Source: Kiritimatiellia bacterium
Lineage (GTDB): Bacteria > Verrucomicrobiota > Kiritimatiellia > RFP12 > UBA1067
DNA: 64,000 bases
Assembly (NCBI GenBank): GCA_017406465.1
Contig: JAFQYM010000009.1
Location: 8,221-72,220, forward strand
Direction of reading: 5' to 3'
This document shows, piece after piece, positions 11,344-56,993 of this stretch. The notes under the pieces were generated by a model that was given only the letters and a program-made list of their open reading frames with translations, made no database searches and was not told the DNA's origin. The translations under genes and the position numbers were made by a program. Each line of letters begins with the position of its first letter. The stretch's first letter is position 1.

Positions 11344-11378
11344 ACGACAAAACACCCGAGAAAGAATAAAAGACAGAA

Positions 11379-14348: not shown

Positions 14349-14787
14349 AATGTGGGAACCAGAATTCGAGGACTGGTCAGAGGGCAGGGTCTTCCTGTCG
14401 TCATGCGAACTGTCGACGCAATGCTCGGCGCGGAACGAATACGGCGTCATGATGCAGGTGGGAACGGACGACAATCCGTATCCAGTGGATGCCGCGATAT
14501 TCTGGATAGACGAAATGCACCTCTATCTCCGCTATGACTGGGGTCTGTGGTACAAGATTTCCAACGACGACCCGGACAACTGCGCCAACCTCTGCAAAAG
14601 GACCTCCGCGACGCTTCTCCTATGCACAACCTCGTCAATCAAGCACCACGCAGTAAAGGTCTATCACATCGACAGACTCCCCAAAGAGCTGTTCGGGCAG
14701 GAGGAAAGTGACGCCTCAGCCGGACTCGAGGCGATCCAGCTCGACCTTGACTTTATTTCGTCGCCGGGAGACGGCGAAATCCCTTAG
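14341..14787 (+). CDS. Small hypothetical protein translationally coupled to the chimeric AAA protease
   Basis: ATG overlaps the upstream stop (aATGAATAAAATG). Trp/Cys-rich, with no known motif. Confidence 0.45.
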   Translation: MNKMWEPEFEDWSEGRVFLSSCELSTQCSARNEYGVMMQVGTDDNPYPVDAAIFWIDEMHLYLRYDWGLWYKISNDDPDNCANLCKRTSATLLLCTTSSIKHHAVKVYHIDRLPKELFGQEESDASAGLEAIQLDLDFISSPGDGEIP

Positions 14788-19928: not shown

Positions 19929-19958
19929 AACGACCCCTATCGCACATGCACTATCTTC

Positions 19959-26225: not shown

Positions 26226-29200
26226 TTGTGTTCTCCTATTGGTAAAATGTTCATAATCGTATCGACCAGCACCATTTTCTCTGGGTATTTCTTAAAGAGC
26301 GCAGTCTCCACTACGGAAAATGGCAGTATCCGCGCTGAATCTGGAATGTTCGCAGGAGTGCCACGACCTGTCGTAATCACAACATACGGGACGAACTCTT
26401 TAAGCCTCTTGATAAAAGACTCAACCTTGCCACAATCCGTCCCCACGTGCGGCAACCACTTATCTATCAATCCTTGGTGGATAATCAAGATATCAAAACG
26501 CCAGTCGCGCAATGGGAGCTCCTCACAATTGGTCGCCGAAGACCCATTGACTATCGCATATCTCAGGAAGGCGTCGAATCTCCCTTTGTCTAATGTTATG
26601 AGCGAATCCAACCCAATCTTCTCTTCGCCAAACTTGGTCTCGTCAACGCACCAAATACCCATGCGACAAAATGTCTTGATCTCATCGGACCGATTTCGCA
26701 AAAACTTTGAAACCCGTTCGTCAACTATTAAAATACGCGAGAGCCCCGTCTCATACATCTTAGCAATAAGATGGTAATTGGTTAGTCGTTGATAGACGGA
26801 TTCATTCTGTCCAAGCATCATCATATCATTAAGATATGATTGTGTTCCGCTCAAAGGCTCCAAATACAACATTTTGTCTTGATTAAAATCATCGGATGTT
26901 GCATGCCGCATAAACGCAATGGATTTCCCTTCATTCCATTCCGCGTCTTTTTCATTATATACCAAAGATATTCCCAGTTCTTGCACAATCTTATTATCTA
27001 CACCATCTACGCCCTCCCCGCCGCTATTCCCTTTTATTTCATCATTCAAATCTTCTCCAAAACAACAAGGAAGCGTTATGATTCTCTCTTCATACTTCCG
27101 CAACATGACATCAGATTCTCTGTATGCCGAGCATAGATCCTTAACAAACATAGGCATCCCATTTGATTTATTCACTGCATTGCCTTGATACAAAGGATTG
27201 CCCTGCCTTATCTTAAAATCTGATGCATTGTTTCCAAGTGCTTCTGAAACTTTCGCGTGGTATTTCAATGCAATTGCGTAAACTGCTTCCAATCCCTTTT
27301 TATTGTCAACTGCCGCCATTCTTCTCAATTTGTATTTTTCAGCAAAGGCCGCGAACCCTTGTAAAAGACCATCCGGCGTGTCTCTTAAAATGCCCTGCAA
27401 CACAGAAAACCATCCATCCAATACCTTAAAAATCAATTCCCGTTCTGAATAATCAGCATCAGCTTTGACATCATTAATTTTTTTCCGTAATATCTCATTT
27501 TCACCAACAAAACCAAACACATTCCCATTTATATCAAGCGTTTTCGGCATAGCAACTATCAACGCCAAATACCAATAAACCTCATCTGCAATTATATTTG
27601 GGCGAAGCTCTCCATCTTTCAGTAAATTACCCACAATAGAACGGAACATTTCCTTAAAAACGAAATTCCACACATCCAGATTGCTCACCAACCCCTGCCC
27701 AGGATTCCCCGACGAACCTACTTCCGTCGTCAACACTCTCAACGCAGGCAAGCCAGAATCAAATCTCCTTCTCGTCTCACTCCAATAAGTTATCCACGCT
27801 TTAATCGCCTTGACTTTCAATTTCTTTGCGACAGCCTCTGCCGAAATCGTCCCATTCTGCAAGTCTTTCAACACATCATCATAAAATCCAGACGCATTCG
27901 GAACCATATCAACTTTGCCACTATTATCATTTGCCAAGACGCGGAATGGCAAATGAGGGTCTGCCTGTGAAGGGAACTTCGGCAAAACAACGAACGAATA
28001 GTTCCAATCCTCTTCGCTGTCATTCTTTGGCTTAACAAATCGACCGTCTTTTGGTGGTGGCACAACGAACACGCCTAATGTCCGCAGCTCTTTAATTATG
28101 TCCACATTGACACCAGTCGTATCACAGACAAAGGCAATATCTCTTGGACGAGGAATCGTGAAATGATACCCAAGATGATCTTCATTAGCACGTATTGGTG
28201 TTATTATAGGAATCCCTTTCGACATCCCTCCTATATCGGAGATAGAGCGCTTATTAAGATAACCAGCCGATATCTTCATCTCAGCAAGCCCCCAGTTCTC
28301 TCGCCGCAAAGACCCTGTCTCATCTATAAATGGCTTCTCTATCCTAATCTGCTGACAATGGTGCAATGGCATCCAAAGGCGATTGCCTAAACGTCCATCG
28401 CCAGGCACATCACCAATAAGTCGTCCCGCAATCCGCTTCAATTCATTTTCATTATATTTTAACAGACATGCATATTGCTCTTGATAAAAGACTGGCAACT
28501 GAGCCACAGAGCATTTCCCCGATAAAAACTCTGCAATGCATTCTTGCTCCGACGGTAGTAAAGAAGTCTGCAAGGCTTCTTTATACGTCTCATACCATCT
28601 TTTAAGCGACTCATCAGTTGTATGTGAAGTCCAAAGTCGTTTGCCTATGCCGCCATCGCTTGACGCCTCGCCCACAAGCCAACGCTCAATCTTCTCAATG
28701 GCATCCTTGTCCCGATTCTTTAGCAATAAATACTGTTTCTTGTAACATTCAGGCAAGGAGTCCACCGCCCCCTTCCCAGAGAGAAACTTTGAAATCTGCA
28801 TCCTTTCATCTCGCGTCAATCTCTGCAGGACATCTCTACACTCCTCGAACCACTTCAAAAGATCTTTATCAACCATCCAATAGTCATCGAACGTCGCAAA
28901 CACATTTGATATACCATCATAAACATCAACCAAAACCGCCCTTCCGTCATCGTCTGCGGCGAAATCGACATAAACATCCAGATTTGTCTTTTCTCCTTTA
29001 AACTTTGACCAACCATGCTTTGCTGCGTTTCGAATTACATTCTCAAGAATAGTAAAGAATGCATGAGAGCCGACAATGCCACCCGGCAATGCAACTGCTA
29101 AATCGCTTGAAAATTTATCATTGTCTCTCACACTCTTTTTAGCATTCGCGACATTGGATGCATTTTCAACAATAGGATCATCGCTATAGGTAATAAATTC

Positions 29201-31258: not shown

Positions 31259-31278
31259 AGTAAATCATCCACGCTTAC

Positions 31279-32430
31279 TTATTTGATATTTTGGCCAATT
31301 TCTTCATCCAAAACAACTTCTTGTCCATTAGAATCAAATCCAACAACTATTAATGGAAAGAAAATCTCTCCCTGAGAATCATATGAAATTTCACCCACGA
31401 TAGAATGATATTTGCTTATACGCCGAAATCCTTCTATCAATTTATCACTAGATTTGGCATTTTTATACGCCTCATTATACAACATCAGTGCTTCATATGC
31501 AAAAGCGCCAACAATTGTAGGTTCTCTCCCATAAGCACGGGAATATTCATTTACAAACGCTATCCGCTCCGGAGTATTTATTTTCACGCCAAATTCTGTA
31601 TCAAGAAAGATGATATTAGATAAATCTTTTACATGAGAACGCTGATCAGAAGCAACCAATGATATTTCTGTCAAGATCTTACCACTAAACCGACACTCCT
31701 TTAAATAGTTCAAAGAAGATATATAAGCTGGACCAAAACCTGTTATAAAAATGGCATCAGGCTTTGAATCTACCAATTTCATAATTTGAGCCTTGACATC
31801 AACATCACTAATATCAAAGCGTTCTATGGGATACACAACACCATCTTTCCCATATTGAGATTTAAATATTGAAATCGCATCATCTCCACTTTGATCATTG
31901 ATTGCGAAGACTGCAATTCTATTAATTTTCAATATGTCATGTGCATATTTAGCCATAACTTTTGCCTGAAGAGCTACAGGAATCCACGCACGAAAAACCA
32001 AATCACTTAATTTCGTTACATCAGACGCACCAGTACCAAAGGCAACCAACGGCATATGCTCCTCATTCAACCGTGGAATAAACTGCGATACAGGCGTATT
32101 CCCGAAAGCCAGAACCCCCTTTAGCCGCTTCATTTGCAAAAGGCGAGCAAATGCCAACACAGTATCTTTGGAGGTGTATCTTCCATCCTCTACAATCAGC
32201 TCAAACGGTTGTTCATTACCAAACCGTCCTTCTAATTTCTGCTCTGCTATCTTTATGGAATTAAATATTTCCTGCCCCATTACAGAAACAGAACCCGTCA
32301 ATGGCAGGATCGCTCCAATCCGAATTACATCATCTGGTGCGGACTTATTCGTTGCCTTGTACGCCAGTAACGACACAATGCCAATCAGCACGACTGCGCC
32401 AATCGCAATCAGCAACTTATTTTTCTTCAT
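31279..32430 (-). CDS. Periplasmic binding protein, type I (LivK/LivJ-like ligand-binding protein), N-terminally anchored
   Basis: Signal/anchor MKKNKLLIAIGAVVLIGIVSLLAY. PBP1 core RIGAILPLTGSVSVMGQE…GVLAFGNTPV…IAVFAINDQSGDD. RBS AAAGGAAAAC. Very AT-rich. Confidence 0.75.
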   Translation of the reverse strand: MKKNKLLIAIGAVVLIGIVSLLAYKATNKSAPDDVIRIGAILPLTGSVSVMGQEIFNSIKIAEQKLEGRFGNEQPFELIVEDGRYTSKDTVLAFARLLQMKRLKGVLAFGNTPVSQFIPRLNEEHMPLVAFGTGASDVTKLSDLVFRAWIPVALQAKVMAKYAHDILKINRIAVFAINDQSGDDAISIFKSQYGKDGVVYPIERFDISDVDVKAQIMKLVDSKPDAIFITGFGPAYISSLNYLKECRFSGKILTEISLVASDQRSHVKDLSNIIFLDTEFGVKINTPERIAFVNEYSRAYGREPTIVGAFAYEALMLYNEAYKNAKSSDKLIEGFRRISKYHSIVGEISYDSQGEIFFPLIVVGFDSNGQEVVLDEEIGQNIK

Positions 32431-32452
32431 TTTTTGTTTTCCTTTCTTGTGT

Positions 32453-32719
32453 TCAAATGATTCCCAGCGCCTTTGCGCGCCACTCGCGGGCTTTGGACAG
32501 ATCCTGCGGGACGCCGCAACCAGATTCATAGCAGGATGCAAGCTGTCGCATGCAGTTCGCGTTTCCCAATTGCGCACCACGCATGAAGCACTCAATGGCC
32601 TTCTGCACGTCGACGACATTCTCGTTGGCGTCATCAAACAGGTATCGCATACCCGCCGCCCATTCGGCATCTCCATCGGTTTTGGGCGTGAAGTTCTTAA
32701 CCCAGTTCGTATCACCCAT
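32453..32719 (-). CDS. Sel1-repeat protein (88 aa)
   Basis: Two Sel1-like repeats: AAGMRYLFDDANENVVDVQKAIECFMRGAQLGN and MRQLASCYESGCGVPQDLSKAREWRAKA. RBS GGGAGG. Confidence 0.6.
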   Translation of the reverse strand: MGDTNWVKNFTPKTDGDAEWAAGMRYLFDDANENVVDVQKAIECFMRGAQLGNANCMRQLASCYESGCGVPQDLSKAREWRAKALGII

Positions 32720-32844
32720 TGGAGGCCTCCCTCTTTTTGGAGGTCAGACAGGCCTTAAGTCCACGGCACTCAGCCATGAACTCACCCAGCACGCTTGATA
32801 TGAAGATTCGGTATTTCATCACAAGGCATTATATCCTTTTCCCC

Positions 32845-34227
32845 TTACGTCCGCCATTCTTCCTGAACCTCCTTAAGGCATCGACCCTCCGCCGTCTTCC
32901 AATCGAGACGCCCGTTAGACGGACGGCCCGAAACAACCGAGGATGCCGCAGACGGGGATGCGAATTCATAATCTCGCGCAAAAATTCTATCAACAATCAC
33001 ACCCTCCGCCTCCAATTGCTTGCGTAACCGATAATAGCTGGGCGTATGATTCCTCAACGATGGCACAGCCCTGATAGACACTCGCGATCCTGCGACAACG
33101 ATGAATCCAGACTCGCTAATCCGCCCTCGCGCCTTAGCACCGGAAATGTCGCAAGTAAAGTCCCCAGGCTGGATTTTCTTGTCGCCATCAAAAAAACGCT
33201 CCCGCACCGTATTGCAGACTTTTTCCACAGATTGAACCATGTCTCTAAACTCCACAGGAAGACGTCGCGTCGTATAGCGAGCAATCCCTATTGGTGCGCT
33301 TTCGCCTTGCAAAGCATATTTTGCCACGACAGCATCGCGCTCCTTGCATAGCAACAGCCCTATCGTCTGCCCATCCCACTCATGCTTCAACTGGTTGTCC
33401 ACAGCCGTCATGTAAAAACGCAACTGACTCAAGTTTTCTGGCTGGAACTCGCCAACCTTCAATTCAATAACAAGATAACGACGCAACCCCAAATGATAGA
33501 AAATCAGGTCGGGATAAAACTCGCGCTCTCCCACCTGGAATCGGACTTGATGGCCCACATAGGCAAAACCTTGACCAAGCTCCATTAATGTTTCCGAGAT
33601 ATGTGAGATTAGCGCCCGCTCAATGTCGCGCTCCTGTGCGGTCTCCGCTATCTCCGCAAATGCAAAATGATATGGGTCTCGTATGGTTTCGCGTATCAAG
33701 TCACTGTCGTTAGGCGGCATCGTCAATGCAAAGTTGTTTATCCCTCGCCCATACCGTTCGAAAAGATTCGTGTCCAAATGGTTCAAAAGCGCATTGCGAC
33801 TCCACCCGTGTTCAAGCGTCTTTTGAACGTAAAACAACGCCTTTGCGCTATTCCCACCGCATCTGTCGATTATGAATCTATGATGCCCCCACGGAACCTT
33901 AATCAAAATTTCCACAACTTGTGGAAGATTTGGCTGCTCGAAATACAATTCATAAAACCGCTGGCAATATCGCAGGTTTATAGGCGAAAGTCCGCTTGCA
34001 TTCTGAAGTTCCGATTGCAAATCCCTGCTTAACGTAACAAAGAAACGCGACCCATAGTACGCCGTGCCGACATAACGCTCACGAATATCCTTCCCCAACC
34101 TCCAATAAAACTCCATCAAAGCACCATTAACAGAAACTGCCGCACGAATCTGCAGCTGCCGATAGCAAGATTTCAAATCTGCTATCCAAGTTCGATATGC
34201 GTCATCCATTGCAATCAATTCACCCAT
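32845..34227 (-). CDS. YhcG-like PD-(D/E)XK nuclease (DUF1016) with a C-terminal DUF4357-like domain
   Basis: Core FYPDLIFYHLGLRRYLVIELKVGEF. C-terminal GFIVVAGSRVSIRAVPSL…YRLRKQLEAEGVI. Start at the internal Met with GAGGAGA RBS. Confidence 0.7.
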   Translation of the reverse strand: MGELIAMDDAYRTWIADLKSCYRQLQIRAAVSVNGALMEFYWRLGKDIRERYVGTAYYGSRFFVTLSRDLQSELQNASGLSPINLRYCQRFYELYFEQPNLPQVVEILIKVPWGHHRFIIDRCGGNSAKALFYVQKTLEHGWSRNALLNHLDTNLFERYGRGINNFALTMPPNDSDLIRETIRDPYHFAFAEIAETAQERDIERALISHISETLMELGQGFAYVGHQVRFQVGEREFYPDLIFYHLGLRRYLVIELKVGEFQPENLSQLRFYMTAVDNQLKHEWDGQTIGLLLCKERDAVVAKYALQGESAPIGIARYTTRRLPVEFRDMVQSVEKVCNTVRERFFDGDKKIQPGDFTCDISGAKARGRISESGFIVVAGSRVSIRAVPSLRNHTPSYYRLRKQLEAEGVIVDRIFARDYEFASPSAASSVVSGRPSNGRLDWKTAEGRCLKEVQEEWRT

Positions 34228-34240
34228 CGCTTCGGTCTCC

Positions 34241-34954
34241 TCACTCGAAATAGTTCTTTGACAGCCAGTTCGGATCGAGGAACTGGCGGGAATCGGATGT
34301 CTCGGCCTTGACCTCGCCCTGCGACAGGAACACGGCACGATCAATCCATGAAAGCAGGTCAAGGCGGTGCTCAACCATCACAATCGCGCGTTTCGCATCC
34401 TCCTTCGCGAAGCGGCGGACGCGCTCGATGATGTCCTGCGCAGACTTGGGCGAAAGCCCTGCGGACGGCTCGTCCAAGAGGTAGAGTCGTTGTGGACGCA
34501 TGAACACCATCGCGAGCGCAAGCGCCTGACGCTGCCCGCCAGAAAGAGAACCTGCACGCTGTCCGAGCTTCGGCACAAGGAAGTCGAATAGCGCGAGCAT
34601 CTCGTCCCTTGCAGCGGCGTATACCGTCTTAGGAAGTGACATCCCAGCAAGCTGCAAATTTTCCTCTACAGTCTGTCCAGGAAAGATGTTGTCCGTCTGG
34701 CGCAGATAGCCGAGTCCAAGGCGTACACGCTCCTCTACCGACTTGCCCATCAGCGATTCACCGCCCAATGCAATATCGCCCGCCGTAAGCGGCAACGCAC
34801 CTACCGTCGCCTTGAGGAGCGTCGATTTCCCGCAACCGTTCGGTCCCGCGATCAGCACAGCGTCCCCCTCGCGCACCGTAAGACTCACGTCATTCAGCAC
34901 CGGCCTCTCGCCATAGCCGCAGGAGAGATGGTCTATCTTGAGCAGTTCACTCAT
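34241..34954 (-). CDS. livF: Branched-chain amino acid ABC transporter ATP-binding protein LivF
   Basis: Walker A GPNGCGKST, LSGGQRQALALA, DEPSAGL. Typical LivF length. Operon order H-M-G-F. Confidence 0.85.
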   Translation of the reverse strand: MSELLKIDHLSCGYGERPVLNDVSLTVREGDAVLIAGPNGCGKSTLLKATVGALPLTAGDIALGGESLMGKSVEERVRLGLGYLRQTDNIFPGQTVEENLQLAGMSLPKTVYAAARDEMLALFDFLVPKLGQRAGSLSGGQRQALALAMVFMRPQRLYLLDEPSAGLSPKSAQDIIERVRRFAKEDAKRAIVMVEHRLDLLSWIDRAVFLSQGEVKAETSDSRQFLDPNWLSKNYFE

Positions 34955-46670: not shown

Positions 46671-47750
46671 TTACTTTGCTGCGAGTTCGACGAGGTCGGC
46701 GACGCGGGAGGCGGCGTCGGGGGTCGCGAGGGTGCGCATCTTCGTGGACATCTCCGCAAGGCGCTCAGGGCGGTCGTAGCAGCCCATGAGATAGAGGTAA
46801 AGCTGCTTCGCCGTCAGACTGGACTGGATGCCCTCGTCGGCAGCGCCCTTCGCGACAAATGCCTCGGCATTGAAGTGCTGGTGGTTGCGCATCGCCGAGG
46901 GAAGCGGTATCAGCATCGCCGCCTTGCCGCAAGCCGCAAGCTCGAAGCACGTCGACGCTCCCGCGCGGGCAATCACAACATCCGCGGAGGCAAAGGCGTT
47001 CGCCATCTCGCGCTCAAACGCCTGGACGCGCGACTGAAGCGCCGCATGCGCGTAGGCCGCCATCACCGCCCCCTCGTCGGCTGCGCCGGTCTGGTGAATG
47101 ACGTAAAGCGGACGGACTTCCCGCCCGGAAGCCGCCCTGCGGTCTATCTCGCCCTTCATCATCGAAATCGCCTCGCTCGCGAGACGGTTCACCATGTGCG
47201 CACCCTGCGAGCCACCGGTGACAAACACGACAAAAGAGCCCGCGGGTATGAAACCGAAGCGAGTTCCAGACGCGATGTCGGCGCGGACGGGGAGCCCCGT
47301 CTTCACGGTGTCGCAGCCCGGCAAGTGCTTGGCAGTCACGTCGAAGCTGATCGCGACTTTCTTCGCAAAGCGGGAAAGAAACTCGACCGCGCGACCAGGA
47401 ATGGTGTTCGCCTCGTGAAGGACGACTGGCACGCCGCACCCTTTCGCCGCGAGAACCGGCGGAAGCGACGAATAGCTCCCCATCGCAAGCAAGACATCCG
47501 GCTTCGCGCGCCTCATCTCCTTTCGGCAGCGCAGAATCGAGCGCAGGATGGAAAAGGCGTTGCGCGCGGCGAGCTGCTTCGCGCCAGTCGAGAAGACCGC
47601 CCCCTTCCAGTTACGCATGACGCTCGACTCTATGTCGCGCCCCGAGTCCCACACCGTCACGTCGTGTCCGCGATTCTTGAGCTCCTCCGCCACCGCGAGC
47701 CCCGGAAACGCATGTCCACCGGTTCCACCACAAGCTACTACGATCTTCAT
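46671..47750 (-). CDS. murG: UDP-N-acetylglucosamine--N-acetylmuramyl-(pentapeptide) pyrophosphoryl-undecaprenol N-acetylglucosamine transferase MurG
   Basis: N-terminal MKIVVACGGTGGHAFPGL motif. RBS AAGGAG. Confidence 0.85.
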   Translation of the reverse strand: MKIVVACGGTGGHAFPGLAVAEELKNRGHDVTVWDSGRDIESSVMRNWKGAVFSTGAKQLAARNAFSILRSILRCRKEMRRAKPDVLLAMGSYSSLPPVLAAKGCGVPVVLHEANTIPGRAVEFLSRFAKKVAISFDVTAKHLPGCDTVKTGLPVRADIASGTRFGFIPAGSFVVFVTGGSQGAHMVNRLASEAISMMKGEIDRRAASGREVRPLYVIHQTGAADEGAVMAAYAHAALQSRVQAFEREMANAFASADVVIARAGASTCFELAACGKAAMLIPLPSAMRNHQHFNAEAFVAKGAADEGIQSSLTAKQLYLYLMGCYDRPERLAEMSTKMRTLATPDAASRVADLVELAAK

Positions 47751-47791: not shown

Positions 47792-48007
47792 TCATGACTG
47801 AATATATCGTATTGTATTTGTCCACAAAACGGCCGCCACACTCGCATCTGGCACCGGAGCTCCCGCGTCATCGTGAACTTTCAGGCAAATCTTTGTCTCC
47901 GCGCCATATGCCATGGCACGTTCGACTTCGGGAGCAAGTTTTCGCGCGAACACGGCACCAGGAATCACGGCAACAACAATCAACAACAGTTTTATCTTGC
48001 GTTTCAT
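47792..48007 (-). pseudogene. Truncated 5' fragment (71 codons) of a member of the secreted paralog family
   Basis: MKRKIKLLLIVVAVIPGAVFARKLAPEVERAMAYGAETKICLKVHDDAGAPVPDASVAAVLW matches the N-termini of paralogs C and D, then diverges and stops. Confidence 0.6.
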
Positions 48008-48135
48008 TTTAGGTTTCCTTTCTCAATTGCCTTGTCGTAGAACTTGAAGTTATAGAAATACGCTACATCTTTCATATCCGAATGGCACCAACGCCCAGAA
48101 TAGTTAGGATGGTCGGGCCAACCATTGGGCAGCAA
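48008..48135 (-). other. Duplicated scar of the 3' end of gene 51235-55653. It is read in frame through the stop of paralog B and ends GNLK* overlapping the next ATG.
   Basis: Reverse-strand translation …LLPNGWPDHPNYSGRWCHSDMKDVAYFYNFKFYDKAIEKGNLK*. Compare the giant protein C-terminus …RPNGWPTRSDYQGQWCHSDLKDVAYFYAFKFYEKAIEKGNLK*. Confidence 0.65.
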
Positions 48136-49110
48136 TTACTTTGCCCCTCCAATATGTTTTGGCTCGAGATTCGTATCATTCGGAGTAGGGTTCATCGCAC
48201 CCGTTAGACGAAAACATCCAGCACCATCAGGTTCACAGGCAAAATCGACATTATGCACTATTGAATAATTAGCTTCTACAAGCAAACCATCTGAATTAAC
48301 TTTGCATCTGCTTCTGACAACCCAGCACTTGCACTTGTCAAACCAATGTCGAATCCGTTTATTGTCGCTTGATACCTCTTCATAGAATCTTGCTTCCTTC
48401 TGGAATTCTGCTTGTGGATTGGCTTTGTAAGGTCCCTTGAACTCGCTTTCTGTATTAATAGCACTGATATAATACCCAGAATAAGGCTCAACAAACCGTA
48501 TGCGCAACCCCATCCCCCTGTACTCCGGCAGCCATTTTCCATTCCAATCTATTGCCACTTGAAAATCCGTTTCTTTTCCTTTCCCGTATGGAGCAACAAA
48601 GTCATTCTTTTCGACATCGTACCCTATCCATTCGTTCAAACATTTCGTATTAACAAATCGCCCATCTATTGCAACGTCCATCTGATGCTTTATCTTCCGT
48701 AGCCTGATTTTCTCTTCCACGTCATACGGCTGCCACTTGCCGTCCTTCACGTCGCGCTCCTCGCCCATCTTGGCATAGCGGTACATCACATGCGAACCAT
48801 AGTATCCATCTTTTGCGACGAAAACCTCAATCTCGTCGCCGCAGGTCTTCCCCTCCAAAACAAACACGCCATTTGTGTCGGTCGTTCCATTGATCCAGGT
48901 TCCCAGCGGACGGAAATTCATGCCGAGGTACGCCTTTATCTTGGCGTCCGGCACAGGCGTCCCGTCATCATCCTGGATGTGCAACTCTATCTTCGTCTGC
49001 GCACCGTTGCGACGCGCGTCACGATAGACAGGGTCTTTCTTCAACGTCACCAGGGCCACGACCTGCAATGCAGACAGCGAAATCATAACAGCCATGATAT
49101 ACTTTTTCAT
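48136..49110 (-). CDS. Secreted paralog B (324 aa): signal peptide, transthyretin/CarbopepD_reg-like N-domain, conserved C-terminal NPTPNDTNLE motif
   Basis: Shares KWQPYD…WIGYD…NPTPNDTNLE blocks with paralogs C and D. ATGA overlap with the upstream mini-ORF. Confidence 0.7.
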   Translation of the reverse strand: MKKYIMAVMISLSALQVVALVTLKKDPVYRDARRNGAQTKIELHIQDDDGTPVPDAKIKAYLGMNFRPLGTWINGTTDTNGVFVLEGKTCGDEIEVFVAKDGYYGSHVMYRYAKMGEERDVKDGKWQPYDVEEKIRLRKIKHQMDVAIDGRFVNTKCLNEWIGYDVEKNDFVAPYGKGKETDFQVAIDWNGKWLPEYRGMGLRIRFVEPYSGYYISAINTESEFKGPYKANPQAEFQKEARFYEEVSSDNKRIRHWFDKCKCWVVRSRCKVNSDGLLVEANYSIVHNVDFACEPDGAGCFRLTGAMNPTPNDTNLEPKHIGGAK

Positions 49111-49199
49111 TTAAGGTTTCCTTTCTCCACCGCCTTGTCGTAGAATTTGAAGTTGTAGAAATACGCGACGTCCTTCATGTCAGTGTCTGGCCTCGGCCT
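49111..49199 (-). other. Second duplicated scar of the giant gene 3' end, forming a 23-codon mini-ORF (MKDVAYFYNFKFYDKAVEKGNLK) between paralogs C and B
   Basis: In frame after the stop of C. Its own stop overlaps the ATG of B (cttaaATGAaaaag). Confidence 0.6.
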
Positions 49200-50210
49200 T
49201 TACTCCCTCTGAGGCTCGCAGTTGCGAATGAAATGCCGCGATTGCTTGGCAATCTCCGCGTCTTCGAGATTCGTGTCGTTGGGCGTGGGGTTAAACACAT
49301 ATGAAATGCTCAATGTTGCCTGTCCTCGACTGGCTGGACTAATTCGGAAGTCATTTATCCTTGCATAGTTCGCTTGTTTCAGTTCCCCGGACTCATCAAG
49401 CACGCAGCGAGTGCGGATTACAAATGACGAATTAGGGCGAAACGGTATTTTTGTCGCCGACAAATTCGGCGGCTTCCCATTTCTATTGACTATGCGAACA
49501 TTTGTCTCCGTATATGCAGAAGTGATTTCTGCCTCATACGGATATGGAAATTCGCTGCCAGAAACATTGTCAACATAATAACCGCCGCAAGGAACACCTC
49601 TCACCCGCATTTCCCCTAGACAAAAACAACTCTTCCATGGTGGTAGTCCATCCCATTCGACATATATCTCAATGTCAGAAGTGTCCCCTTCCCCAAATGG
49701 CTGGACAAATGACTTTTTCTCCATATCAAATCCAACCCAAGAATTTGTCGAGGGGATTTTAAAGAATGTTCCGCATGACACCAGATTCTTAGGATTGTGT
49801 ATCTTCCGAAGTTCCACGGCCTCCTCTGCCCCGTACGGTTGCCATTTTCCGTCCTTAACGTCATGCTCTGCATTCATGGGAACATACGACAATTCCTTTT
49901 GGGAACCATAATATCCTTCTTTCCCGACGAGAAACCTTACCTTGTTTCCATTTGTCTTACCTATGGCGACACATACGCCATTTGCATCAGTCTTCCCATA
50001 GACCGAGTGCGGACTTGGCAACATGTCAAAAACTACCGCCACGCTCGCATTTGAAACAGGCTGTCCAAGGTCATCGTGGACTTTCAGGCAGATTTTTGCT
50101 TCTGCACCATACGCCATTGCGTGCTCTACCTCAGGTTTAATCCGCCCCGCGAACAAGGAGCCCGGGATCACAACAGCAACAGTCAACAATGTTTTTAACT
50201 TGCGATTCAT
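49200..50210 (-). CDS. Secreted paralog C (336 aa)
   Basis: MNRKLKTLLTVAVVIPGSLFA signal peptide, then KPEVEHAMAYGAEAKICLKVHDD… The 3' 100 nt are about 90% identical to the 3' end of D. ATGA overlap with D. Confidence 0.7.
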   Translation of the reverse strand: MNRKLKTLLTVAVVIPGSLFAGRIKPEVEHAMAYGAEAKICLKVHDDLGQPVSNASVAVVFDMLPSPHSVYGKTDANGVCVAIGKTNGNKVRFLVGKEGYYGSQKELSYVPMNAEHDVKDGKWQPYGAEEAVELRKIHNPKNLVSCGTFFKIPSTNSWVGFDMEKKSFVQPFGEGDTSDIEIYVEWDGLPPWKSCFCLGEMRVRGVPCGGYYVDNVSGSEFPYPYEAEITSAYTETNVRIVNRNGKPPNLSATKIPFRPNSSFVIRTRCVLDESGELKQANYARINDFRISPASRGQATLSISYVFNPTPNDTNLEDAEIAKQSRHFIRNCEPQRE

Positions 50211-51238
50211 TTCAGATTGCCTTTCCCCGGCGGCTCGCAGTGACGAATGAAATGCCGCGACTGCTTGGCGATCTCCTCGTCTTCGAGGTTCGTGTCGTTG
50301 GGCGAGGGATTGAAAGCACCTGTAACGCAAATACATGCGATACCACCTTTGTCACAGCCGAACGCAATATTATTGATAACTGAATAATGTGCAGACACAA
50401 GGTTGCCTTCAGCATCCACTTTGCATCGACTGCGAACAACCCAACACTTGTTCTTGTCAAAAACCTTTCGTTCATATCGTCGCCCATATGCATCAGGGTC
50501 AATTATAACACGTTCATAGAAATCGGCAGCTTGCTGGTATGTAGCATCAGGCAATGCAGAATATGGCCCTTTGAATTCACTAACTGCGTTGACCGCGCAT
50601 TGATAATAGCCGGAATACTTATCGGCAAATCTAATCTTCTTTCCCATCCCAGTATAATCGGGCAACCATTTCCCATCCCAGTCGAAGAATATTTCAAAAT
50701 CCACTATTTCCCCTTTTCCATGCGGTTGAACGAAATCGCGTTTCTCTAAATCAAACCCTACCCAAGCGTTAATGGCCTTTGTACTGTTGAATTCGCGCAT
50801 ATATGCGACTGCCAAATGAGCAGGGTTGCGTATCTTCCGTAATTCAATGTTCTCTATAGCACCGTATGGCTGCCATTTCCCGTCCTTGACGTCATGCTCC
50901 TCATTCATGGGAACATACGACAATTCCTTTTGGGAACCATAGTATCCTTCTTTCCCGACGAGAAACCTAATCTTGTTCCCATTTGTCTTCCCTTCGGCGA
51001 CACAGATGCCATTCGAGTCGGTCTTCACATAGACCGAGTGTGGCCTTGGCAACATGTCAAAAACGACCGCCACACTCGCATTTGTAACCGGCTGCCCCAC
51101 GTCATCGCAGACTTTCAAGCAAATCTTTGCCTCCGCGCCATACGCCATGGCGTGTTCAACTTCGGGCGCAAGTTTTCGCGCGAACACGGCAGATGGCAGC
51201 GTCAACAGCAGAAAAACAAAAGCGCTCTTTGTTTTCAT
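50207..51238 (-). CDS. Secreted paralog D (343 aa)
   Basis: MKTKSAFVFLLLTLPSAVFA signal peptide. Same domain blocks. ATG overlaps the stop of the giant upstream gene. Confidence 0.7.
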   Translation of the reverse strand: MKTKSAFVFLLLTLPSAVFARKLAPEVEHAMAYGAEAKICLKVCDDVGQPVTNASVAVVFDMLPRPHSVYVKTDSNGICVAEGKTNGNKIRFLVGKEGYYGSQKELSYVPMNEEHDVKDGKWQPYGAIENIELRKIRNPAHLAVAYMREFNSTKAINAWVGFDLEKRDFVQPHGKGEIVDFEIFFDWDGKWLPDYTGMGKKIRFADKYSGYYQCAVNAVSEFKGPYSALPDATYQQAADFYERVIIDPDAYGRRYERKVFDKNKCWVVRSRCKVDAEGNLVSAHYSVINNIAFGCDKGGIACICVTGAFNPSPNDTNLEDEEIAKQSRHFIRHCEPPGKGNLK

Positions 51239-54200
51239 TTCAGATTTCCTTTCTCAATTGCTTTCTCATAAAACTTGAACGCGTAAAAATACGCGACATC
51301 CTTCAAATCAGAATGACACCATTGTCCTTGATAGTCCGATCGTGTCGGCCAGCCATTTGGACGCTCTATTTGAACATGACAATTGCAAGATTTCTGTTCC
51401 ATCGGTTCTCCTCCAAATGCCACTCGTCCTGCCGCCGGCGACAACGCAGGGATTCCTTGAGCAAGGTGTGCGCCGCGCACAAGCAATGGGATTGTCGACT
51501 GATTCATGCTTGACGGATAGCAATAAAACACGGTGTTGGTCTTGAGGTCCGCTTCGGACATCTGCAAAGCTTGCGCAACGGAAATCTTGTTTATACCCAA
51601 TATATTTTCTTCAATATTCCAACCCGACCAATTTGTGCCACCGACCCCGCCCCGACCTTTAAACAGCTCCTGCTTGTGCCAACTGTAGTGGCCCCATGAA
51701 CTCCCGACGCCAGTCCAAGTATGCACATTATTGTTTGCAGCAAGCTCCAAAATCTCGTCACCAGTCGAGTAGAAGTTAACCGCATACTGCGAGACATTGG
51801 CGAAACGCCCCGGCCAACCAAGGAACTTCCGGTCATCGTTGGAATCGTTACGGAAGAGCCAATGCCATGTCGAGGCCCATGAATTTGTTGGGTACTCCGC
51901 CCACTCTGGATGAACAAGCTGTGGAACCCGTAGCGCCTCGTCGGTGTCATACGCCTCAGCTGGAACTGCGGAGTTGCACATTAGATAGCAATCAACATTC
52001 AGCTCGTAGTCTTGAATCATCGACGAGCAAACCATGTTGCCAAGCGAGTGGGCCATCAGGACCTTTGTGCCAGGGAGAGCCGAAACCTGTGGGGCCAGCA
52101 CGCTTGCCGTGAAGAAAGCATTCGACACGTTCTCATGGTAGTTTGCGTCGCTACCGATGTCGCTCCTCCACGTCACGCCAGTAAACTTCGCCGTCATGCC
52201 AGACTGCCACATCCGCTTGAACACCTCCGCCGACCATCCCCGCGCACGCGACTGCGTCACGTTCGCTCCATGGAGGAAAACAAGATGCTTGTCTGACGTC
52301 TCCAGGTCTGGCCTGTTCATTGGATCGCCGACTGATGGATTCCATGTCACCGTCTCGCCGGACAACCCACGCATATTCAGATGGCGATACATGTCCTCGA
52401 CACTGGAAACGCTGATATTCGCCTCGCCAGAGACGATCTTCCGACCCTCGTTGCCCGCCGTCCAACCTTCGACTACGAGATTGTCCCCCGCCGCGCATCC
52501 CTCAATCAGAAACACACCGCAATCCTGCGAACCACGAATCGCGGAAAGAATTTGCGCAGGCATCGCAGCTCCGTCAGATGCATTCGTCACCGTTGCGTTT
52601 ACCATCTCTAACACGGCGTAGGTTCCAAAATGAAAACCGAGAGATGTGCGGTGGAACAAACCAGCTTGAGTTCTCGATATGTCCGTCCACATGACATTCG
52701 CACAATCTGAACGCACCTTCCAAGTCACCGCTTCGCGGATAGCAAGTGGAGTTGTCGGCGGGAAGACGGTTGTCGTGTCAATCCAGACTGGTGTGAAGTC
52801 AAGGATGTCCCCTTTCCCGTTTACATGATTGTCGGCATAATCTGTCCCAGCGCCCGGGATGTCGTCATCCGGGCCATTGATGTTTCCAGAGTCGCTATCG
52901 TCATTCACCCAGAACCGGAAGGTTTTCGTGCCCGCCCGTGCGATTGCAGCTTCGGCGTCGGTAATCGACCCGTCGCGGTCGTAGTCGAATACGAGGACAG
53001 GGTCGCCAAGGACATATAGGTCAGCGACCTTCCCAGCCCCAGCAAAGTATGTGCTTTCCGTGTGTGTTCCGAAGAGCGACGATGGATCGTCTAAAATGAC
53101 ATTATCGGGCATGGGGGCGGCAATCGCCAGTTCGTAGTCGTAGTCTGGCCTTGGCGTATCGCCATAATTCGGACTCGTCCCTGCATGGCGAAGTCGGACT
53201 TCGTACTTCCAACCAGGCTTCAGCATCCCGGTTTTCGTCTCGCACTCGCCGTAACGCTCGTTGACCCACGAAAATGTCCTCGATGCGCCACCGACGCCAT
53301 TGACGGGGCGTATCTCAAGCTGGTATTTCTCTGAAACACTGCCGCTTGGATCACCAAAGGTGAACGGCACGGGAATGCGGCTGTTCGGCAAACCACCATC
53401 TTCGGCATCGTTCGGATCGCTATTCTGCGTGACCTCTGCACCATCGCTCACATCATCACCATCCGTATCGTAACCATCCGCAATGCCATCGTTATCCCCG
53501 TCCTGCCCACTCGGATTCGTATTCCAGTCGCACTCCTGTCCGTTCGTGAGCCCGTCGCCATCTGGATCGGCATTTATGTCGTTGTCAGCGTTAGCGTCCG
53601 TAGCATTGTCAACCAGAGGATTGAATCCTGCGGGAAAATGCCGATACTCCCATCCGTCGTTCATTCCATCCATATCCGTATCAGGCTGAAGCGGATTCGT
53701 GTGAATAACATTCTCTTCCCCATCCGAAATCCCGTCATAGTCCGAGTCTGAGTTGCAAGGGTCTGTGCCGGAAACGATCTCATCCTCGTCTTCAACCCCA
53801 TCATCGTCGGTATCCGCGAGACAAGGATTCGTCCCGAGCGAGAGTTCCTCCGAATCGGAAAGTCCATCACCGTCGGTGTCGGCGAGGCGCGGATTTGTGC
53901 CATTCCTGTATTCCTGCCAGTTCGCCAGCCCATCGTTGTCGATGTCGCCGAGCCGCCCGTTGTCGCCTTCGGCCGAGAGCGGGTTGAGCGCATATAGAAT
54001 CTCCCATCCATCTGGCAGGAGGTCGCCGTCGCTGTCGGATAGCTTTGGATTCGTGCCAATGGCATATTCCTGTACATCCGTCAGGCCATCCCCGTCACCG
54101 TCTATGCTCAGCGGATCGCTATGCGACAAACCTATTTCAAAATCATCCGACAATCCGTCACCATCGGTGTCCGACGATATCGGATTTGTAGCATAGCCAA

Positions 54201-55653
54201 GACGATACTCCCATGTCGTCTGCGGCAGAATCGGACCGAACTTCGCGAAGTCAAACGTCAAGTTGTAGTAGCCATTTGTCGTCACGATGTCCTTGTTCTG
54301 GACTCCCACGACTGCACCGTCTCCATCCAACCAGAAATCAGAGCAGAGATAGCTTATCCTCACCGTCCGGTTGCTGTCCGTCGGCACGATGACCTGCATC
54401 GTGACGCCAAGATCGGTGCCGTACTTCTTCAAGTTGCGGTATTCGACCACGTGGACGCCATTGCTCGCGACGTATCCTACACGCATGAAGGAGTTCGTGT
54501 TGCCTATCTCCAGTTCGGAAGCCATCCAATACGGGACTACGAGAAATGTACCGCAGTTGCTCGCCCATCCGCTCAGAGGGCTAGGGTCCAGGGGATCAAA
54601 ATTGTATGCAGAGCTACCAGCGCTAAAAAAGGATGCGTATCCACAATGATAGGCAAAAAGCCATGTGAGGCTCGTATCGTAAAATGAAACTGTCGGGGAC
54701 AAGGAACGATAGATCGAAGGGTACATCGGCGATCCGATTCCATTGCCGCCAAGCCATGCGTATGGATCAACGCCATACGCCGTCGTCCAGCCCGTGCTGT
54801 CATACCACTCAAAGCCATCGGTTTTTCGAATCCAGCCCACCTCGTCGCCATCGCAAAGTGCATCGCCGTCCGTGTCCGCCGAAAGAGGGCTTGTACATTG
54901 CGCGACCTCCTCACCATCGGAAAGCAAATCCCCGTCCGTGTCGTAGGCGCAAGGATCCGTCCCGTATACAAAGCGCTCGTCGGAGTCAGGGAGCCCGTCG
55001 CCGTCAGAGTCGGTCGCATCGCCGACAGAGAAGAATGCCTGCGCGTTTCCGTTTGTGCCGGAGACGGATTCGTCGGCTATCGCCACAAATGCGTTGCTGA
55101 CGCACTGCGATACGTCGAGCGTAAACAGTTTCGAGAGCTCAAGAAGGTTAGTCCCCGCGTAGAGGTCAACAAGGTCGCTTGCCGGGCGAACAGACGGCGG
55201 CCACGCGACGACGGAATACGTCGCGTTGCTACCACGCAGAATCGCGGCGACCATCAGATTCGTGGCAATGGGCATTCCGCCGAAGCCCTCGCCATCGCCA
55301 ACGTCGCAGACATCGGGCTGCAGGACGGGAGAACTGCGTAGATGAGGATGCAGGGCTTCGGCAACGCTGCGCGACCCACTTCCCGCCTCCCATTGCCCAA
55401 CTCCAATCTGCACACCAGTGCGGTCAAGGCCATTCGTGTTCTTAGTGGCTCCTGCACGGACAAAACCAAACACAATTACCGCAAGAACAGCAATCTCGCA
55501 GATTGGGCGGCGAAGGACGGACAGGTATCTGCGAACCGGAATGAAATCATACTCAAATGCAAGCACCGCAAGCCACGCCACAAGCAGGATTGCTGCGACT
55601 GCAAGAATCAAATATGCGTCACGCAAGCCAAACAGGGTTACAGCCGCCATCAC
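51235..55653 (-). CDS. 1472-aa secreted/anchored protein with an array of thrombospondin-type-3-like Ca-binding repeats and a C-terminal alpha/beta-hydrolase (lipase/esterase-like) domain
   Basis: Two N-terminal hydrophobic helices. More than 15 D-x-D-x-DG-x-x-D repeats (DTDGDGLSD, DSDGDLLPD, DTDDDGVEDEDE…). VFLHGANVT…LMAHSLGNMV nucleophile-elbow GxSxG motif. Starts with ATGA overlap on the upstream TPR gene. Confidence 0.7.
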   Translation of the reverse strand: MMAAVTLFGLRDAYLILAVAAILLVAWLAVLAFEYDFIPVRRYLSVLRRPICEIAVLAVIVFGFVRAGATKNTNGLDRTGVQIGVGQWEAGSGSRSVAEALHPHLRSSPVLQPDVCDVGDGEGFGGMPIATNLMVAAILRGSNATYSVVAWPPSVRPASDLVDLYAGTNLLELSKLFTLDVSQCVSNAFVAIADESVSGTNGNAQAFFSVGDATDSDGDGLPDSDERFVYGTDPCAYDTDGDLLSDGEEVAQCTSPLSADTDGDALCDGDEVGWIRKTDGFEWYDSTGWTTAYGVDPYAWLGGNGIGSPMYPSIYRSLSPTVSFYDTSLTWLFAYHCGYASFFSAGSSAYNFDPLDPSPLSGWASNCGTFLVVPYWMASELEIGNTNSFMRVGYVASNGVHVVEYRNLKKYGTDLGVTMQVIVPTDSNRTVRISYLCSDFWLDGDGAVVGVQNKDIVTTNGYYNLTFDFAKFGPILPQTTWEYRLGYATNPISSDTDGDGLSDDFEIGLSHSDPLSIDGDGDGLTDVQEYAIGTNPKLSDSDGDLLPDGWEILYALNPLSAEGDNGRLGDIDNDGLANWQEYRNGTNPRLADTDGDGLSDSEELSLGTNPCLADTDDDGVEDEDEIVSGTDPCNSDSDYDGISDGEENVIHTNPLQPDTDMDGMNDGWEYRHFPAGFNPLVDNATDANADNDINADPDGDGLTNGQECDWNTNPSGQDGDNDGIADGYDTDGDDVSDGAEVTQNSDPNDAEDGGLPNSRIPVPFTFGDPSGSVSEKYQLEIRPVNGVGGASRTFSWVNERYGECETKTGMLKPGWKYEVRLRHAGTSPNYGDTPRPDYDYELAIAAPMPDNVILDDPSSLFGTHTESTYFAGAGKVADLYVLGDPVLVFDYDRDGSITDAEAAIARAGTKTFRFWVNDDSDSGNINGPDDDIPGAGTDYADNHVNGKGDILDFTPVWIDTTTVFPPTTPLAIREAVTWKVRSDCANVMWTDISRTQAGLFHRTSLGFHFGTYAVLEMVNATVTNASDGAAMPAQILSAIRGSQDCGVFLIEGCAAGDNLVVEGWTAGNEGRKIVSGEANISVSSVEDMYRHLNMRGLSGETVTWNPSVGDPMNRPDLETSDKHLVFLHGANVTQSRARGWSAEVFKRMWQSGMTAKFTGVTWRSDIGSDANYHENVSNAFFTASVLAPQVSALPGTKVLMAHSLGNMVCSSMIQDYELNVDCYLMCNSAVPAEAYDTDEALRVPQLVHPEWAEYPTNSWASTWHWLFRNDSNDDRKFLGWPGRFANVSQYAVNFYSTGDEILELAANNNVHTWTGVGSSWGHYSWHKQELFKGRGGVGGTNWSGWNIEENILGINKISVAQALQMSEADLKTNTVFYCYPSSMNQSTIPLLVRGAHLAQGIPALSPAAGRVAFGGEPMEQKSCNCHVQIERPNGWPTRSDYQGQWCHSDLKDVAYFYAFKFYEKAIEKGNLK

Positions 55654-56993
55654 CAGTCCCTTTCATTGGGTGGCAATGGGGCTTTTCTCATCCGCGCCTT
55701 CTTCTCCGCCTCGTGCTCGTCGCTGCGTTCCTGCGCTTTTTTCAAAACGGCTTCGACCTCCTGATCCTCGGCGTCCTGCTGGTCGCCCTCGTCGGGCTCT
55801 TCCTTGGCCTTGTCATCCTCGCCCTCGGGCTGTTGCTGGTCCTGATTCTGTTGCTGCTGATCCTGGTTCTGCTGTTGGTCCTGATTTTGCTGATTCTGCT
55901 GTTGGTTCTGGTCGTTCTTCTGCTGCTGGTCGTTTTTCTGCTGTTGCTGCCCGCCGCCGTTCTGATCCTTCGGCAGAAGCTCGCGTATCTCGTTTATGAT
56001 GCGGACCGCCTCTTCCTGGCTCGGCGGAAGCGACTTCTCCACGCACTCCATCTGAAGCTTTTCAAGCTCCGTCGCGAGAGCCGATATCTTCGCCTGGTCC
56101 TCGGCCGTGAACGGCGGCTTGTTGGTGTCGCTCTGCGCCTGCTGCTCGTAGGCCCGCGCCCACGCCGGGAACTTCGCACGGAAGGCGCGCGTGTAGTCGA
56201 GCGCGTCCTGCTGCCAGCTGCGACCGTTGAACTGCTCGACGTCCATCCACGCGTTCGACTGCGCGACAAGGTCTTCGTCCATCGCCGCGGGCGGCATAAC
56301 CGTGAGTTTCACAAATCTCGTGAAGTCGTGCTCCACGTCAGAGAGAAGCGGATATGCCTCGGCGTCGAAGTCGGAGAGCTTCGTCGCCGCGTCCTTCGTC
56401 TTCTTCCGCGCGGCGTCGATCTGCGCGGAGATTGTCGCCGCCTGCTCCTCGTTCGTGACAGACTGCGCAATCAGTTCGCGGACGGGAATCCACGAATCGG
56501 AAAGCCGCTCCGCTCGCTTCGAAAGAGCGTCTGCGAGCGCGACCGCCTTTTCAGCGCGGTTCGTGCGGTAAACGCCCGACTCTGACATAAGAGCGCGGCA
56601 ATCCTTCGTCGCGGCGAGGAGCAAGGAACCGGGATCCTTCCCTTCCGCTGCCTTGAGGACCGACTTTAAATGCTCCTCCTCGCGGATCGCAGGCAGGCGG
56701 TCGGTCGCACGCGTGAAATTGCGATTCGCCTTCGCGTCCTCGGGTGCGGCCCTAAGTGCGATCTGCGCTGCGTTCGCCGCCTCTTCAAGATTCCCCTTTT
56801 CGTATTCGAGCTTGGCGATGACCTCGGCCGCGCGCGCGCCGTGCGTCTTGGAAAGAAGCAGTGGACGCAGCGTCTTAAGGGCGTTCGTCACATCGCCATC
56901 GCGGTAGAACGACACACCCTCGTTCCAGACCTCGCCGTCGGTCATCGCCGGCTCGGTCGCGGCAAGCAAAAATGCTGCCAGAGCCAAAATCAC
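55650..56993 (-). CDS. TPR-like protein with a Q/N-rich low-complexity segment and an acidic/basic C-terminus (BatC-like architecture)
   Basis: Signal-like N-terminus. TPR-like helices (EGVSFYRDGDVTNALKTLRPLL). Low-complexity GGGQQQQKNDQQQKNDQNQQQNQQNQDQQQNQDQQQQNQDQQQ. ATGA-coupled to pyrF upstream and to the giant gene downstream. Confidence 0.55.
   Translation of the reverse strand: MILALAAFLLAATEPAMTDGEVWNEGVSFYRDGDVTNALKTLRPLLLSKTHGARAAEVIAKLEYEKGNLEEAANAAQIALRAAPEDAKANRNFTRATDRLPAIREEEHLKSVLKAAEGKDPGSLLLAATKDCRALMSESGVYRTNRAEKAVALADALSKRAERLSDSWIPVRELIAQSVTNEEQAATISAQIDAARKKTKDAATKLSDFDAEAYPLLSDVEHDFTRFVKLTVMPPAAMDEDLVAQSNAWMDVEQFNGRSWQQDALDYTRAFRAKFPAWARAYEQQAQSDTNKPPFTAEDQAKISALATELEKLQMECVEKSLPPSQEEAVRIINEIRELLPKDQNGGGQQQQKNDQQQKNDQNQQQNQQNQDQQQNQDQQQQNQDQQQPEGEDDKAKEEPDEGDQQDAEDQEVEAVLKKAQERSDEHEAEKKARMRKAPLPPNERDW

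Follow-up and report, generated by a model that had tools for sequence, protein, structure and literature searches.

Kiritimatiellae are abundant and largely uncultured members of rumen and gut communities. In a 64,000-nt stretch of the Kiritimatiellia bacterium assembly GCA_017406465.1 (contig JAFQYM010000009.1, positions 8,221 to 72,220; hereafter the window), a giant gene, G, is followed by a tandem array of four paralogous genes, D, C, B and A, interspersed with short segments, or scars, that resemble the 3' end of G. Comparison with related loci indicates that this is probably a polymorphic toxin locus of a rumen or gut bacterium, in which G would be a lipase-type toxin, D its cognate immunity gene, and C, B and A orphan immunity cassettes joined by remnants of toxin tails. 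In this model, G would be a large TSP3-repeat carrier whose last ~590 residues are exchangeable and end in a predicted Ser-Asp-His alpha/beta-hydrolase, putatively a lipase or esterase acting on the cell envelope. The paralogs (the P family) would be Sec-exported two-domain all-beta proteins whose binding to the hydrolase, in the periplasm, would inhibit it. C, B and A would have been kept from, or acquired with, other toxin alleles, and the segments between the cassettes would be the 3' ends of other toxin genes, the bulk of which was deleted or displaced by recombination. From comparative inference, this would be the first coherent description of a probable toxin-immunity system in Kiritimatiellae; our literature search for such systems in this group returned nothing relevant, only unrelated microbiome papers.

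At its N-terminus, G has hydrophobic helices, and TSP3 calcium-binding repeats lie at about residues 200–750 (Pfam TSP3_bac, E=1.8e-38); the C-terminus has a weak Pfam Abhydrolase_1 match. NCBIfam matches to CglD and MtsD were far below cutoff and reflect the TSP3 repeats only, and were discarded. The last ~590 residues constitute a swappable C-terminal (CT) module, the 5' boundary of which is marked by a conserved junction motif. This motif is 92–96% identical in all pairs of four giants, and the parts flanking it are 10–50% identical on the N-terminal side and 15–75% on the C-terminal side. Across their first ~870 residues, the giants of loci L005, L009 and L014 are ~100% identical; beyond the motif, identity falls to 45–75% or 15–48%. 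By sliding identity, G and the L005 giant are 10–50% identical in their N-terminal parts and 100% identical in the CT. The high-identity blastn blocks in L005, L009, L014 and L093 all begin at window position 53019, and the distant giants of 55 loci are homologous to G only from residue ~884 onward. The switching of the CT at a conserved motif that these alignments indicate is characteristic of polymorphic toxins that exchange their C-terminal modules.

The hydrolase domain at the end of the module, T, carries a predicted catalytic triad of Ser1203 (AHSLGN), Asp1299 (STGDE) and His1447 (WCHSD, 25 residues before the C-terminus), all three invariant in 37 aligned homologs. Its GxSxG nucleophile elbow is AHSLG, and its fold neighbours are lipases and esterases: Foldseek matched the AlphaFold2 (AF2) model (pLDDT 71, below 50 in the tail) to bacterial lipases, phospholipase PlaB and esterases (E~1e-4), the closest structural neighbours including family I lipases. 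A profile search of the PDB with T gave a marginal match to pancreatic lipase-related protein (E=0.003), and single-sequence PDB searches with the hydrolase and with D returned chance matches only. Homologs of the last ~400 residues of G come from Kiritimatiellae metagenome-assembled genomes (MAGs); many carry PF12697, some are named alpha/beta hydrolase, and T homologs have marginal DUF900 or Abhydrolase_6 scores.

We compared 94 related loci, 76 from GTDB species genomes and the others from metagenome contigs; almost all of the 76 belong to Kiritimatiellae or Lentisphaerae-binned gut or rumen MAGs. In nearly every one of the 94, the hydrolase occupies the extreme C-terminus (last ~370 residues) of a 1100–2400-aa TSP3 protein and is directly followed by one to four tandem P-family genes. 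Hydrolase fragments truncated at the 5' end and retaining the 3' end lie between P genes at many loci and in many species, and individual genomes hold more than one such locus. Some of the longer listed fragments (150 codons or more) are toxin genes interrupted by the end of a contig, and only internal ones, between P genes, were relied on. The toxin co-varies with the adjacent P protein (Mantel r=0.78, p≤0.001; 38 pairs), and in 16 arrays the toxin correlation is 0.76 with the first P protein and 0.36 with the second.

In L085–L092, the loci with a toxin of the allele type P0136, the giant is split (4899–11686 in L085): after a TSP3 open reading frame (ORF) of 1234–1255 aa come ORFs of 183–191 aa, in some loci one of 195 aa as well, and last the hydrolase as an ORF of its own, 561 aa long. 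Since this 561-aa product recurs in 36 indexed blocks of the collection (24 contigs read), the ORF is probably real; the split giant could be a broken gene or a variant made up of several genes. Toxin-partner contigs of L026, L052, L067, L071 and L078 are binned as Limosilactobacillus, Paludibacteraceae, Bacteroidales and Rikenellaceae. These short contigs are probably mis-binned Kiritimatiellae DNA, the alternative being a cross-phylum transfer of cassettes.

In the window, the whole array lies on the minus strand with the paralogs downstream of G (Table 1). As an earlier note on this DNA had it, three paralogs are full-length (D, 343 aa; C, 336 aa; B, 324 aa) and A is a 71-codon stump. The version of C called by the ORF finder is 378 aa long and starts inside D; the true start is at the ATGA at 50207–50210. 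The stump has 61 family codons, then 10 unrelated codons and a stop; homology ends at 47826, where A is cut off at the island boundary beside murG. The GC content is 0.47–0.49 across 48–52 kb versus 0.60 or more in the flanks, and no recombinase or integrase was seen beside the array within the window. The intergenic segment from the stop of C to the ATG of B measures exactly 89 nt and that from the stop of B to the ATG of A exactly 128 nt, the lengths first reported. The note had also described every junction as an ATGA overlap, which holds for G/D, D/C, scar/B and scar/A but not for the entries into the scars: C is followed by TAA, 21 nt and an ATG, and B by TAA and then TTG.

That the four copies reflect an expansion or collapse during assembly has a negligible probability. 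The sequences do come from metagenomes assembled from short reads, with internal repeats of up to 345 nt at 84% identity (the 5' ends of D and C). However, over 3.8–3.9 kb the array is 100% identical in independent metagenome assemblies from different samples, three of them complete and two partial, the repeats are too short and too divergent to mislead assemblers (the paralogs, at 34–56% mutual amino acid identity, are too divergent to collapse), and dozens of species show the same architecture. For practical purposes, an artefact is excluded.

Both intergenic scars align without gaps, codon for codon, with the G tail (...WCHSD(L/M)KDVAYFY(A/N)FKFY(E/D)KA(I/V)EKGNLK, then stop). The scar frame ends in the TGA of the next gene's ATGA, and the stop codons of C and B share that frame, so that the in-frame homology ending at the next ATG, as originally described, was borne out by re-alignment. 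Over the last 23 codons, scar C/B matches the G tail at 53/69 nt and 19/23 residues, and scar B/A at 55/69 nt and 20/23 residues; over the last 42 codons, scar B/A matches at 91/126 nt. The blastn E-values are 4.8e-14 and 1.2e-59, the latter for the tail together with the paralog 5' end (G tail plus D 5' end versus scar B/A plus A, 79% over 266 nt), and the two scars are 87% identical to each other over 77 nt. Scar C/B also holds an AAAGGA resembling a Shine-Dalgarno (SD) sequence and the ATGA start of B. Scar B/A starts in frame directly after the TAA of B; since His1447 lies in the WCHSD of the G tail, the tail that forms the scars encodes the predicted catalytic His, and scar B/A includes this motif. 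A third, minimal scar had been overlooked: the D ORF ends in CEPPGKGNLK and a stop, and is thus fused to the last six toxin-tail codons.

The scars had been interpreted as duplicates of the 3' end of the upstream giant gene. They match the P0136 allele, which is 64% identical to the G CT, better than G: 41/43 residues versus 32/43 for scar B/A, and 23/23 versus 19/23 for scar C/B. In L085–L087, a P0136-type toxin is intact and is followed by an ortholog of B and then by a scar. The window segment 49181–48003, which comprises scar C/B, B and scar B/A, is 96.1% identical over 1180 nt to L085; the left edge of this block is at 49181, and scar B/A is collinear with the scar after the B ortholog. 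Differences between the tails are mostly synonymous (7 synonymous and 1 non-synonymous; 9 and 3–4), which fits divergence inside functional toxin genes before truncation. The scars are evidently remnants of a displaced toxin allele, not local duplications of the G tail, and on this evidence for the allele of origin (the P0136 match and the L085 block) a simple tandem duplication was rejected.

Each piece of the array also occurs elsewhere. The G CT and D travel together at 98% identity in L005. A 38-nt remnant of the G tail followed by D and C is found at 99.1% identity over 2064 nt in L009 (RUG12088), behind a different toxin (60% amino acid identity) and its own partner, and the flanks of this D-C block are unrelated to the window. 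Orthologs of C at 95–99% lie in arrays behind other toxins in L009, L014 and L015 (95–96% in the last two), and C matches P0056 at 98.8%. The ortholog of B in L085–L087, ~96% identical at the nucleotide level, comes right after the intact P0136-type toxin (P0096 match, 98.5%), and B is the presumed cognate immunity gene of a toxin of which deletion has left 25 codons here. The beginning of P0047, a protein encoded behind a G-like toxin in L093 and L094, is 95% identical to stump A at the amino acid level. The edges of the high-identity blocks, at 53019, 51276, 50228, 49213, 49181 and 48003, all coincide with joints.

The earlier note had proposed that a unit made of the 3' tail of the preceding gene and a paralog was amplified in place by unequal recombination. 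Its composition, a toxin 3' tail plus a paralog, and recombination at the joints are real; the tail, however, does not come from the preceding gene G, and amplification in place is not supported, because the paralogs are only 34–56% identical to each other and each has near-identical orthologs in other arrays and contexts. For the same reason, the array is best described from these comparisons as a stack of cassettes exchanged through toxin displacement, not as a recent in situ amplification.

In L009, at 12048–14435, three unrelated proteins with signal peptides and no Pfam match (255, 303 and 195 aa) are encoded after the C ortholog. The first is ATGA-coupled and, like C and A, begins with MNRKIKLL; the three may belong to other families of immunity-type cassettes that were joined where the signal peptide begins. 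In L007/L011 (GCA_045537795.1), at 11086–11952, a gene of the EcoRI methylase family lies inside the array, with the first partner gene on one side and a toxin remnant of 128 codons on the other.

Only the last ~20 nt, GAGAAAGGAAAyCTGAnATGA, with the SD-like AAAGGA and the ATGA, are conserved throughout the junctions. Twenty-three P-P junctions without detectable toxin remnant keep this core, with positions 60–90% conserved and sequence further upstream random, and other genes of the window have AAGGAG- or GGAGG-type Shine-Dalgarno sites. Most simply, the core would be the partner gene's ribosome-binding site and start, located inside the toxin's last codons (EKGNLK, then stop). The tail would have been kept because the next immunity gene has its ribosome-binding site and ATGA within the last ~20 nt, so that deletions preserving immunity expression had to spare these. 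It may also act as a homology patch for cassette recombination: it encodes the catalytic-His loop and the terminal helix, and would for that reason be conserved among alleles. The ATGA itself was found at 103 of 113 distinct P starts. It is partly a by-product, since the signal peptides begin with MK, MR or MN and the second codon therefore starts with A, and to that extent it was set aside as a special coupling device.

The alternative of an array formed in place by unequal crossing-over of the present G tail and a paralog, with the mini-ORFs of the scars selected as translational-coupling relays, was suggested in part by the note. The tail is indeed in the unit, and the tail plus the 5' end of A aligns ungapped with the G tail plus the 5' end of D; the scars keep the frame, run up to an ATGA and come after in-frame stops of C and B; many scars elsewhere are open over their whole homologous length, and the 23-codon ATG-initiated ORF recurs. 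However, the scars come from a different allele, the B block is 96% identical to a locus in which the P0136 toxin is intact, and the divergent paralogs each have 95–99% orthologs in other arrays. As for the relays, the Met of the mini-ORF is an ancestral toxin residue (HSD-M-KDV), the scars in L007, L009, L015, L016 and L017 have in-frame stops or no ATG, the 23 P-P junctions mentioned above retain just ~20 nt with the SD-like motif, and D is coupled to C without any mini-ORF. We therefore hold this alternative to be improbable, and a relay function of the mini-ORFs is not required.

The P family has no Pfam or NCBIfam family (D, C, B and A), and a PDB profile search gave nothing for it. It is very large, with 2714 representatives at 50% identity at E≤1e-3 and 1863 at E≤1e-10. 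The N-termini look like signal peptides (MK or MR, a hydrophobic helix at residues 2–19 and an AxA-like VFA). The AF2 model of D (pLDDT 93) shows a signal-like helix at residues 2–19, a sandwich and a ~200-residue beta domain, and is all-beta apart from the helix. The transthyretin-like N-domain reported initially is supported by this model: Foldseek matched it with probability 1.0 to CarboxypepD_reg-like, CnaB, SusC-NTE and carboxypeptidase N TTR domains (TMt 0.64–0.72), although Pfam PF13620 is below threshold in B (19.6 versus 32.3 bits) and was precomputed on two homologs. Foldseek against the PDB matched this N-terminal sandwich only, and found no solved relative of the ~200-residue C-domain. 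The C-terminal motif NP(T/S)PNDTNLE is present in D, C and B, in agreement with the NPTPNDTNLE of the initial description, and is the most conserved element of the family, N310, P313, D315, N317, L318 and E319 being invariant in 66 homologs. The conserved N-domain and variable C-domain suggest that specificity for the toxin may reside in the C-domain.

C and B are only 34% identical, and D is a mosaic, with a C-like signal and N-domain (80–95% amino acid identity) and a more B-like C-domain. The 3' ends of D and C are 89% identical over 83 nt, close to the ~90% first given; this similarity had been attributed to recent duplication or conversion. The similarity of the ends does point to conversion or recombination.

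The paralogs might instead be accessory proteins of a secreted or surface lipase or esterase serving nutrition or host interaction: a Lif-like foldase, a secretion partner or a substrate-binding subunit. Family I lipases, which are among the structural neighbours of T, need a foldase encoded downstream, the translational coupling of the genes is tight, the CarboxypepD_reg/transthyretin-like fold of the P N-domain is common in surface and carbohydrate-active proteins, and no toxin-delivery domain was found in six giants with Pfam and NCBIfam. Such a role, however, leaves unexplained the arrays of divergent orphan copies with toxin-gene remnants, the swapping of a CT plus its partner between unrelated N-termini, the transfer of a 99%-identical partner-only block between loci and the co-variation specific to the first copy. 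Lif is moreover a helical membrane-anchored chaperone, and D, C and B have no match to Pfam Lipase_chap, D being modelled as all-beta apart from its signal helix. We thus regard an accessory role as unlikely.

Several observations weigh against the toxin-immunity interpretation preferred here. T and P match no curated toxin, Tle, Tli or Imm family in Pfam, NCBIfam and PDB searches; the six giants have no recognised delivery domain (PAAR, VgrG, Rhs, LXG, TPS, FHA or MafB), Pfam and NCBIfam finding only TSP3_bac and a weak alpha/beta-hydrolase; and no secretion system was seen in the window flanks or among called neighbours. The hydrolase model is of moderate confidence, its Foldseek matches covering about a third of it (TMq ~0.2), and the signal peptides of the P family were judged by eye, without a predictor. 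All alleles share one toxin fold, so that diversity is allelic, unlike the mixed unrelated toxins of classical polymorphic systems, and the co-variation of T and P is partly expected from shared ancestry alone. Finally, adjacency, co-variation, CT swapping, the descent of the scars from another allele and the position of block edges at the joints come directly from the sequence comparisons, whereas toxicity, lipase activity and protection rest on inference from them, as do the putative lipid or ester substrate, neutralisation, the periplasmic site of action and the delivery route.

The locus resembles the orphan rhs-CT/rhsI and cdiA-CT/cdiI modules of the polymorphic toxin loci of Enterobacteria and others (PMC3967940). 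In both cases, the toxin (putative here) is at the extreme C-terminus of a large carrier, strains differ abruptly in a variable CT beyond a conserved demarcation motif, the immunity gene, again putative here, comes directly downstream, further downstream immunity genes are preceded by 5'-truncated toxin fragments, and the orphan of one strain is the main toxin of another. Unlike these systems, the Kiritimatiellae carrier has no Rhs/YD, FHA/TPS, PAAR or VENN/DPxGL element, only TSP3 repeats and N-terminal hydrophobic helices, and all of its alleles share one hydrolase fold. Most orphan fragments here are 6–130 codons of 3' end, whereas classical orphans keep the whole CT and part of the conserved upstream region; as short 3' ends, the fragments could not be turned back into toxins by recombination upstream. 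The putative immunity proteins also appear to be exported, judging from their signals, whereas those of Rhs and contact-dependent inhibition systems are cytoplasmic.

In this last respect, the locus recalls the Tle1–4/Tli pairs of type VI secretion systems (T6SS). Tle toxins act in the periplasm, and for this reason the Tli immunity proteins are found there or are lipoproteins (PMC9860674); both systems pair a GxSxG-type alpha/beta-hydrolase with an adjacent, signal-peptide-bearing, beta-rich, family-specific partner. However, the hydrolase here is the C-terminal domain of a 1100–2400-aa TSP3 protein and not a stand-alone cargo effector. Nor does its sequence place it among Tle1–4/Tli: Pfam and NCBIfam gave only generic Abhydrolase_1/6 and DUF900 matches, and the PDB only the pancreatic lipase-related protein. 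VgrG, PAAR and Hcp are absent among the Pfam-labelled neighbours in L001–L008, L085–L092 and the window flanks, the 94 loci not having been scanned systematically. Orphan immunity genes of T6SS/Rhs systems have been described in Serratia (PMC10539506); such arrays likewise accumulate immunity genes without cognate toxin, plausibly guarding against the toxins of neighbouring strains, and differ from the cassettes of the window, which keep a recognisable toxin-tail remnant supplying the ribosome-binding site. Judging from its architecture, the locus would work like a polymorphic toxin locus, a well-known general phenomenon, with a TSP3 carrier and otherwise uncharacterised families as its components.

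A bolder proposal, which we advance only tentatively, is that the locus represents an undescribed system of interbacterial antagonism in Kiritimatiellae, combining a TSP3 surface carrier that presents an exchangeable lipase-type toxin and has no known secretion or delivery domain, a very large, unannotated family of exported immunity proteins and a portable cassette adaptor made of the toxin tail. The conserved 3' tail of the toxin gene would have been co-opted, its recombination homology and its ribosome-binding site and start allowing immunity genes to be captured, stacked and expressed, as a homology-driven analogue of an integron cassette array.

If the toxin-immunity interpretation is correct, the locus would define two new families, one of toxins and one of immunity proteins, both now annotated 'hypothetical' and the second with ~1900 cluster representatives at E≤1e-10, and Kiritimatiellae would engage in strain-level warfare and immunity hoarding. 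The locus would also provide a natural example of why toxin remnants persist, namely as the translation start of the next gene and as homology for cassette exchange. For annotation, a TSP3 giant ending in ...HSDxKDVAYFYxFKFYxKxxEKGxLK and a stop, followed by ATGA, would then signal a toxin-immunity junction.

Table 1. Features of the G-D-C-B-A locus, in window coordinates
Feature	Position	Strand	Size	Remarks
Giant gene G	51235-55653	minus	1472 aa	ORF call
Conserved junction motif	52882..53034	minus	G residues ~874-924	LYVLGDPVLVFDYDRDGSITDAEAAIARAGTKTFRFWVNDDSDSG; marks the 5' boundary of the module
Alpha/beta-hydrolase (lipase/esterase-like) domain T	51238..52326	minus	G residues ~1110-1472	predicted
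Paralog D	50207-51238	minus	343 aa	ATGA-coupled directly to G
Minimal scar in D	about 50207-50227	minus	18-21 nt	last 6 codons, GKGNLK; carries the C start region
Paralog C	49200-50210	minus	336 aa	start is the ATG of the ATGA at 50207-50210
Scar C/B	49107..49199	minus	89 nt intergenic	tail homology at 49107-49181, last ~25 codons of a P0136-type toxin
Mini-ORF in scar C/B	49107-49178	minus	23 codons	MKDVAYFYNFKFYDKAVEKGNLK
Paralog B	48136-49110	minus	324 aa	ORF call
Scar B/A	48004..48135	minus	128 nt + ATGA	last 43 codons of a P0136-type tail, LLPNGWPDHPNYSGRWCHSDMKDVAYFYNFKFYDKAIEKGNLK
Stump A	47792-48007	minus	71 codons, first 61 family-homologous	ORF call; comparison with P0047
murG	46671-47750			adjoins stump A

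Upstream of G, a 447-aa TPR protein (55650–56993, minus strand) with a long Q/N/D-rich low-complexity stretch is encoded by a gene that overlaps the GTG start of G by 4 nt. This protein was found only in assemblies of the same strain, and its gene was rejected as a member of the system, as it is not beside the giants in other loci.

A second low-GC island (GC 0.37–0.49) lies on the minus strand at 19900–34400 of the window. One of its products, of 1195 aa, combines TCAD9 (ternary-complex-associated domain 9, E=8e-22) with a receiver and a kinase-like domain. A second, of 1678 aa, has no Pfam match, and the island further codes for a histidine phosphatase, a Peripla_BP_6 protein and a PDDEXK nuclease (YhcG/DUF1016). 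It looks like a separate conflict or defence-type island.

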